NCBI RefSeq assembly: GCF_003019035.1
Contig: NZ_CP027447.1
DNA from: Escherichia coli
GTDB taxonomy: Bacteria > Pseudomonadota > Gammaproteobacteria > Enterobacterales > Enterobacteriaceae
DNA length: 64,000 nt
Reading direction: 5' to 3' (one strand)
In this document: positions 21,594-22,128 of the stretch, piece after piece
Layout: every line of letters begins with the position of its first letter
Position numbering within the stretch: the first letter of the stretch is position 1
The notes under the pieces: model-generated
Seen by the model: the letters and a program-made list of their open reading frames with translations, nothing else
Database searches by the model: none
Told to the model about the DNA's origin: nothing
Made by a program: the position numbers and the translations under genes

Positions 21594-21808
21594 ATCTGCC
21601 TCGGATTCACGTTTATCAGTGTTGTTTTTGGCTGGCAGCCAGATGGGAGTCGGGCTGATATTTTGACAATAATCCGGGTTGGCGATTCTCGCCATAACAC
21701 CGAAGAATAATTTTTAGAGGTGATGAGTTGCTTAGTTACATAACGATTTTATGACGAAGGCATAACATGCTGCAGATCACATCAGGTGAACGCCGTAAGA
21801 AAATATCT

Positions 21809-21985
21809 TGTGATTCAGATCACAAAGATTCAACAAACTAACAAAACAAAAATGTGACATTACTCACATTTAAATGCCATTTTTAGCGAAAATCGCCGCC
21901 TTGTTGCTTTTTTACACAAGAGTTTTGTGATGCACATCACGTCAATTACCTCTCTACCCCCTATATTTATGTGATTCATATCACA
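21809..21985. promoter_or_regulatory. Cluster of four CRP-consensus sites in the yibI / mtlA divergent control region
   Basis: TGTGAttcagaTCACA 21809-21824; TGTGAcattacTCACA 21853-21868; TGTGAtgcacaTCACg 21926-21941; TGTGAttcataTCACA 21970-21985. The mtl promoter is known to carry multiple CRP sites. Confidence 0.75.
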
Positions 21986-22128
21986 CAAAAAGCCGTCGAC
22001 TGGACAGTTAACCGATTCAGTGCCAGATTTCGCAGTATCTACAAGGTCCGGCTACCTCTGCCGCCACATTAACAAAAAACCTCGGGCTTCCAGCCTGCGC
22101 GACAGCAAACATAAGAAGGGGTGTTTTT

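Follow-up and report, generated by a model that had tools for sequence, protein, structure and literature searches.

The window, a 64-kb stretch of an Escherichia coli genome (64,000 nucleotides), carries the locus yibH-yibI <> mtlA-mtlD-mtlR, as identified from its open reading frames, NCBIfam matches, and the PGAP annotation of identical and related strains. On the plus strand, the mtlADR operon (22129-25872) consists of mtlA (22129-24042), mtlD (24137-25285), and mtlR (25285-25872, 195 aa), all three of which are intact and which we place under the control of the array described below. Their NCBIfam matches were NF011663, NF002648, and NF008234, the last of which is the MltR family, where the mtlR product scored 256 bits against a cut-off of 149. 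The minus strand carries yibI (21231-21593), encoding a DUF3302 protein of 120 aa, and yibH (20092-21228), encoding an HlyD-family adaptor, both assigned by PGAP annotation and NCBIfam. The spacer between mtlA and mtlD (24043-24136) is 94 bp in the window versus 229 bp in a K-12-like genome, presumably because the window has fewer REP copies. In the rhs-associated region upstream of yibH, an intact 173-aa open reading frame (19114-19635) represents an Imm57-family immunity gene, whose counterpart in the K-12-like genome carries a frameshift annotation.

A 970-bp query covering yibI, the intergenic region, and the start of mtlA (21231-22200) was matched in 5404 of 5426 complete E. coli genomes. 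Strain SCU-301 was the sole complete E. coli genome found with 100% identity to this query, and K-12-like genomes showed ~96.7% identity. Identity of at least 99% over the 970 bp was reached by one of the 5404 matching genomes, with nearly all others at 95-99%, indicating that the yibI-mtlA allele of the window strain is uncommon. In genome ES4, the match was broken near window position 21735, which suggests an insertion between the array and yibI.

Since the annotated yibI starts at 21593, the intergenic region extends from 21594 to 22128 (535 bp). The earlier note had placed its left boundary at 21696, following a 154-aa open reading frame (21231-21695) that is peculiar to the window strain. 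This frame arises from a 1-nt deletion in a T-run, which fuses a short upstream open reading frame (26 aa in K-12 and UTI89) in frame to yibI, and the boundary was therefore misplaced. The short frame is not the small protein YibX, as yibX lies antisense to waaL. A block directly upstream of yibI (21594-21700, minus strand; GTGTTATGGCGAGAA...GGATTATTGTCAAA) is kept across genera. This block could be either the yibI core promoter (-35 TGGCGA, -10 TATTGT, TSS ~21659) or the beginning of the short upstream open reading frame (MARIANPDYCQNIS...).

The intergenic region contains a dense array of binding sites for CRP, recognized here by the palindromic core TGTGA-N6-TCACA (16 bp inside the 22-bp consensus). 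Four sites within 180 bp (21809-21985), two of them perfect, had been described in the earlier note. A pattern search of the sequence recovered all four at these positions, and three rather than two of them have perfect 10/10 cores, the site at 21853-21868 having been overlooked as perfect. From left to right, and named after the published sites with which they coincide, they are CRP2 (21809-21824, TGTGATTCAGATCACA, perfect core, centre 21816.5), CRP3 (21853-21868, TGTGACATTACTCACA, perfect core, centre 21860.5), CRP4 (21926-21941, TGTGATGCACATCACG, core 9/10 with the mismatch TCACG, centre 21933.5), and the promoter-proximal CRP5 (21970-21985, TGTGATTCATATCACA, perfect core, centre 21977.5). 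A fifth, weak site, CRP1 (21766-21781, CATGCTGCAGATCACA, core 7/10, centre 21773.5), lies farther upstream, and the centre spacings from CRP1 to CRP5 are 43/44/73/44 bp.

This array could in principle be a chance cluster of CRP-like words without function. However, the 64-kb window contained three perfect TGTGA-N6-TCACA matches versus 0.01 expected from dinucleotide-preserving shuffles, and its four matches with at most one mismatch all fell inside one 177-bp stretch. Furthermore, the cores do not vary among at least 27 genera (see below), and we regard a chance origin as negligibly probable. When the core was counted at every position of the window, no further site above 8/10 was found.

The mtlADR operator of K-12 is known to contain five CRP sites (Ramseier & Saier 1995; RegulonDB; Lee et al., NAR 2026, PMC13421365), and the RegulonDB rows for these sites are reproduced in the supplement of Shimada 2011 (PMC3105977). 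Their published centres are -262.5, -219.5, -175.5, -102.5, and -58.5 for CRP1 to CRP5, with spacings of 43/44/73/44 bp (Lee et al. 2026, PMC13421365). The 44/73/44 spacing in the window equals this map, which identifies the four sites as CRP2-CRP5; the attribution to established CRP sites of the mtl promoter thus held in both spacing and position, and comparison with the published mtlA promoter map placed the four sites on CRP2-CRP5. The window represents the same locus as the K-12 operator. An alignment with a K-12-like genome showed identical core half-sites, promoter, and leader, and the 43/44/73/44 spacing, the -35 and -10 elements, the Cra box, and mtlR are likewise identical. The differences are strain-level substitutions only, located in the N6 spacers of CRP3, CRP4, and CRP5 and in the inter-site DNA. 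The array is therefore already known in detail, through the RegulonDB positions and the 2026 mechanistic study. What the earlier note had overlooked is CRP1, the third perfect site, and the significance of the spacing, namely that the array is the MtlR operator.

The mtlADR core promoter (22001-22036, plus strand) comprises the -35 element TGGACA (22001-22006) and the extended -10 element TGcCAGATT (22021-22029). TGGACA (22001), a 17-bp spacer, and CAGATT (22024) together formed the best plus-strand match of a sigma-70 weight-matrix scan, with a predicted TSS at 22036. This TSS places CRP5 at -58.5, a class-I-like but non-canonical class I position, exactly as published; the published mtl TSS comes from S1 mapping, for which an error of a few bases is possible. 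The promoter is identical to that of K-12 and kept across genera. A generic promoter and terminator scan did not call the true mtlA promoter and returned irrelevant hits only, because an 8/12 match lies under its threshold, as expected for an activator-dependent promoter.

Inside the promoter spacer lies a conserved match to the Cra (FruR) consensus (22008-22021, minus strand; ACTGAATCGGTTAA). This predicted site fits perfectly the consensus RSTGAAWCSNTHHW, which Ramseier reportedly gave in 1995. Repression of mtl by Cra has been published, and the box in the promoter spacer is consistent with it. In the mtlA 5' UTR (22036-22150), folding stability was no greater than that of shuffled sequences (z = -0.22), and no known RNA family was detected in 21200-22400 when this stretch was compared with Rfam at E ≤ 1. 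The 5' UTR contains a small conserved hairpin (CGGGCU-UCC-AGCCUG, 22083-22097), which alone is not significant, and Pseudocitrobacter shows an apparently compensatory change in it (CAGGU...ACCUG).

Using the N-terminus of MtlA as the query, 80 mtlA loci were collected from species-representative genomes, and 700 bp upstream of each were scanned. The exact 44/73/44 four-site array was present at 36 loci (the window counted), spanning Escherichia, Citrobacter, Enterobacter, Klebsiella, Serratia, Yersinia, Pectobacterium, Erwinia, Pantoea, Hafnia, and Budvicia. Kluyvera, Providencia, and Mixta had 72 or 74 bp instead of 73 bp, and the spacings were 45/73/44 in Aeromonas, 44-45/73/43 in Vibrio and Photobacterium, 44/72/43 in Photorhabdus, and 44/63/44 (one helical turn less) in Edwardsiella. 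The Pasteurellaceae and Orbaceae kept the promoter-proximal 43-44-bp pair. CRP2 was conserved in all loci with the four-site array, and the GATCACA half-site of CRP1 was kept in the core Enterobacteriaceae, with or without yibIH. In anchored alignments (36 loci; 27 genera), the cores carried ~1.8-2 bits versus ~0-0.4 bits for the N6 and most spacer columns. Conserved cores amid drifting N6 and spacer sequences provide an independent footprint of function, and the comparison widens the four-species set of Lee et al. 2026 (PMC13421365). The CRP3-CRP4 distance of 73 bp is nearly invariant across three orders and is 63 bp in Edwardsiella. Both distances are near whole helical turns, which supports a helical-phase-dependent architecture; in Lee et al. 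2026 (PMC13421365), such an architecture at mtl is put forward as a hypothesis only.

CRP binding, the essentiality of individual sites, and the MtlR mechanism are taken from published experiments on near-identical K-12 DNA. Published EMSA showed that cAMP-CRP binds K-12 mtl DNA with the same core half-sites as the window, and genomic SELEX and ChIP-seq in ETEC, again with DNA sharing these half-sites, give independent evidence of binding. CRP is essential for mtl transcription in K-12, and a delta-crp strain does not grow on mannitol. Chromosomal replacement of CRP2, CRP4, or CRP5 abolishes mtl expression, replacement of CRP3 has a small effect, and CRP1, with 7/10 conserved bases, is dispensable and is unoccupied in vitro when CRP2 and CRP3 are present (Lee et al. 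2026, PMC13421365). MtlR has no DNA-binding domain and supershifts CRP-DNA only when 43-46 bp separate two bound CRP dimers; neither the 73-bp pair nor the malK operator with its 34-bp pair is bound by MtlR unless re-spaced to 44 bp (PMC13421365). In the window, the bridging distance of 43-46 bp is found in the pairs CRP1-CRP2 (43 bp), CRP2-CRP3 (44 bp), and CRP4-CRP5 (44 bp). In addition, dephospho-EII-Mtl was shown in K-12 to sequester MtlR at the membrane, which accounts for mtl induction, and dephospho-HPr competes with it, so that repression returns in glucose.

Taken together, these data argue strongly, with a probability that we put at roughly 0.93, that the array serves as both operator and upstream activating region for mtlADR, a class III CRP-dependent promoter, with yibIH as a neighbour in certain lineages. 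What was observed directly comprises the sequences, their spacing, the promoter, the genes present, and a geometry that is deeply conserved; from the sequence identity we infer that the window strain behaves like K-12. At high cAMP, CRP dimers would then occupy CRP2, CRP3, CRP4, and CRP5, with the weak CRP1 normally empty. CRP5 at -58.5 would contact RNA polymerase at the poor promoter TGGACA-17-CAGATT, and CRP2 and CRP4 would be indispensable, probably through a helically phased nucleoprotein architecture. When mannitol is absent, an MtlR dimer would bridge CRP2-CRP3 and CRP4-CRP5 (both 44 bp) and repress transcription. Mannitol would bring induction as dephospho-EII-Mtl draws MtlR to the membrane, and competition of dephospho-HPr with EII-Mtl in the presence of glucose would restore repression. 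Cra would add a repressor site inside the promoter spacer.

The arrangement resembles the CytR-CRP complexes at deoP2, cdd, and nupG, in which a repressor likewise contacts tandem DNA-bound CRP dimers and spacing sets the specificity. However, CytR has its own DNA-binding domain and an operator between CRP sites ~52-53 bp apart, whereas MtlR is devoid of such a domain and requires 43-46 bp. The malE-malK divergent region is likewise a dense CRP cluster between divergent operons that was recovered by SELEX. Both divergent promoters there are documented CRP/MalT targets, whereas at mtl one direction is documented; furthermore, the CRP2-CRP3 spacing of malE-malK is 34 bp and MtlR does not bind (PMC13421365).

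The other direction leads to yibI. That the array also lies upstream of the divergent yibI-yibH pair, as pointed out in the earlier note, is true geometrically and is already in the literature by proximity, from SELEX and ETEC ChIP-seq. In genomic SELEX for CRP, the yibI/mtlA spacer ranked second in abundance, with 38 clones (Shimada 2011, PMC3105977), and ETEC ChIP-seq gave two CRP peaks, one over CRP2 and CRP1 and the other over CRP5 and CRP4. It is conceivable that the CRP1-CRP3 half, with or without MtlR, also activates or gates the divergent yibI-yibH promoter, which would be compatible with the role in mtlADR control. No strong regulatory DNA upstream of yibI is nearer to this gene than the array, and the centre of CRP2 lies 223.5 bp from the yibI ATG. 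The SELEX authors pointed out that the CRP-bound segment has both genes downstream of it and that divergent promoter pairs are often both CRP-regulated, and the ETEC peak over CRP2/CRP1 was assigned to yibI. However, these assignments of CRP to yibI are made by proximity only, and a literature search for data on crp-dependence of yibI found no such data; yibI is never mentioned in Lee et al. 2026 (PMC13421365).

Expression data point in both directions. A yibI promoter-trap clone that includes CRP1-CRP3 (21442-21922 in window coordinates) showed 5.6-fold induction in urine, but a second yibI clone (21503-21737) has no CRP site. yibIH and mtlA are co-induced as cells in glucose minimal medium enter stationary phase, a correlative observation that is equally explicable by RpoS. 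Two weak minus-strand yibI promoters were predicted by the weight-matrix scan. The first (TGCAGC-17-TAAAAT, TSS ~21739) would place CRP1 at -34.5 and CRP2 at -77.5; TCTACA-19-TACAAT, predicted in Shimada 2014, corresponds to this candidate. The second (TGGCGA-17-TATTGT, TSS ~21659), which lies in the cross-genus conserved block, would place CRP1 at -114.5 and CRP2 at -157.5. Relative to the canonical activating distances used here (-41.5, -61.5, -72.5, and so on), all four predicted positions would be non-canonical. The supplements of the Cappable-seq and SMRT-Cappable-seq studies contained no experimental yibI TSS, either for the coordinate range or for the gene. Two further sources were set aside: in PMC5852967, yibH is merely an integration site, and the promoter island described in PMC3661553 lies on the opposite side of yibH.

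The distribution of yibIH among the mtlA loci also bears on this question. By tblastn, the 80 fetched loci included 11 with an adjacent, divergent yibI-yibH pair (the window makes 12), and this adjacency was limited to Escherichia, Citrobacter, Pseudocitrobacter, Pseudescherichia, Leclercia, and some Enterobacter. In loci without yibIH, the neighbour was a divergent yibF-like GST gene or an unrelated co-directional gene, and the array was unchanged. Fully conserved in 42 loci lacking yibIH, the array was not co-conserved with the divergent gene. Among the yibIH genera, the distance from the yibI ATG to the centre of CRP2 was variable (121, 223, or 344-355 bp). An array that is intact without yibIH, which occurs in few loci, is thus a feature of mtl and older than the yibIH adjacency. 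The geometry and the promoter-trap clone without a CRP site argue weakly against CRP control of yibIH, and we consider the additional role at yibI-yibH unlikely, at about one chance in a few.

A more radical view is that the array serves primarily yibIH, or acts as a generic 'sink' for CRP or as an architectural element of the chromosome, with the control of mtlA incidental. The exceptionally strong CRP binding of the spacer in SELEX would fit such a role. However, in the site mutants mtl is no longer expressed and the ability to grow on mannitol is lost (PMC13421365), and across three orders the array follows mtlA rather than yibIH, at a fixed distance to the mtlA promoter. This view is therefore highly improbable, and the array is best read as the mtlADR control region.

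Within this control region, some conserved sequences are not CRP sites, and they are minor new points of this study. A dyad TGT-N9-ACA (21902-21916), with a T-tract between its arms, lies in the 73-bp CRP3-CRP4 gap, its centre fixed 24.5 bp upstream of that of CRP4. Among 54 loci of Enterobacterales, Aeromonas, and Vibrio, the T/G/T of the left arm was found in 45/46/44 and the A/C/A of the right arm in 39/42/46. The dyad is a perfect palindrome in Providencia (TGTAG-N5-CTACA) and takes the form TGTA-N7-TACA in Aeromonas. It does not fit the consensus sequences of CRP, Fis, LacI/GalR, TyrR, ArcA, or IHF; the CRP consensus needs N10 between TGT and ACA, and that of Fis is G-N13-C. The mtl paper of Lee et al. 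2026 (PMC13421365) does not mention this dyad.

A second element, AACAAA (21832-21838), keeps a constant offset, base 7, within the 28-bp CRP2-CRP3 spacer of 32 among the 54 four-site loci, while the remainder of this spacer varies freely. At the equivalent place, Aeromonas has a palindrome, GTTTGCGCAAAC. An AAAATAT block directly upstream of CRP2 (21799-21806) is also conserved. The AACAAA element may possibly represent a bend, an alpha-CTD contact, or an extra factor. Together with the TGT-N9-ACA dyad, it would suggest an extra component of the array, either a protein or an obligatory intrinsic bend, and such a component in the gaps could explain why the far-upstream sites are essential. The wider proposal that the array is more than five CRP sites for one promoter, combining an extra gap component with gating of yibIH, is possible but tentative, with the odds somewhat against it.

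Reading the sequence only had located, with single-base accuracy, four of the five published CRP sites, and the value of this result is that of a positive control. Beyond that, the conserved 44/73/44 geometry, the Edwardsiella variant, and the gap elements constrain how CRP2-CRP4, located 100-220 bp upstream, can be essential. The neighbouring yibIH, whose loss in a published mutant lowers the fitness of UPEC in urine, adjoins a segment that ranks among the strongest CRP binders of the genome. If true, bidirectional use of the array would mean that yibIH, a putative membrane-fusion/DUF3302 pair, responds to cAMP and perhaps also to mannitol.
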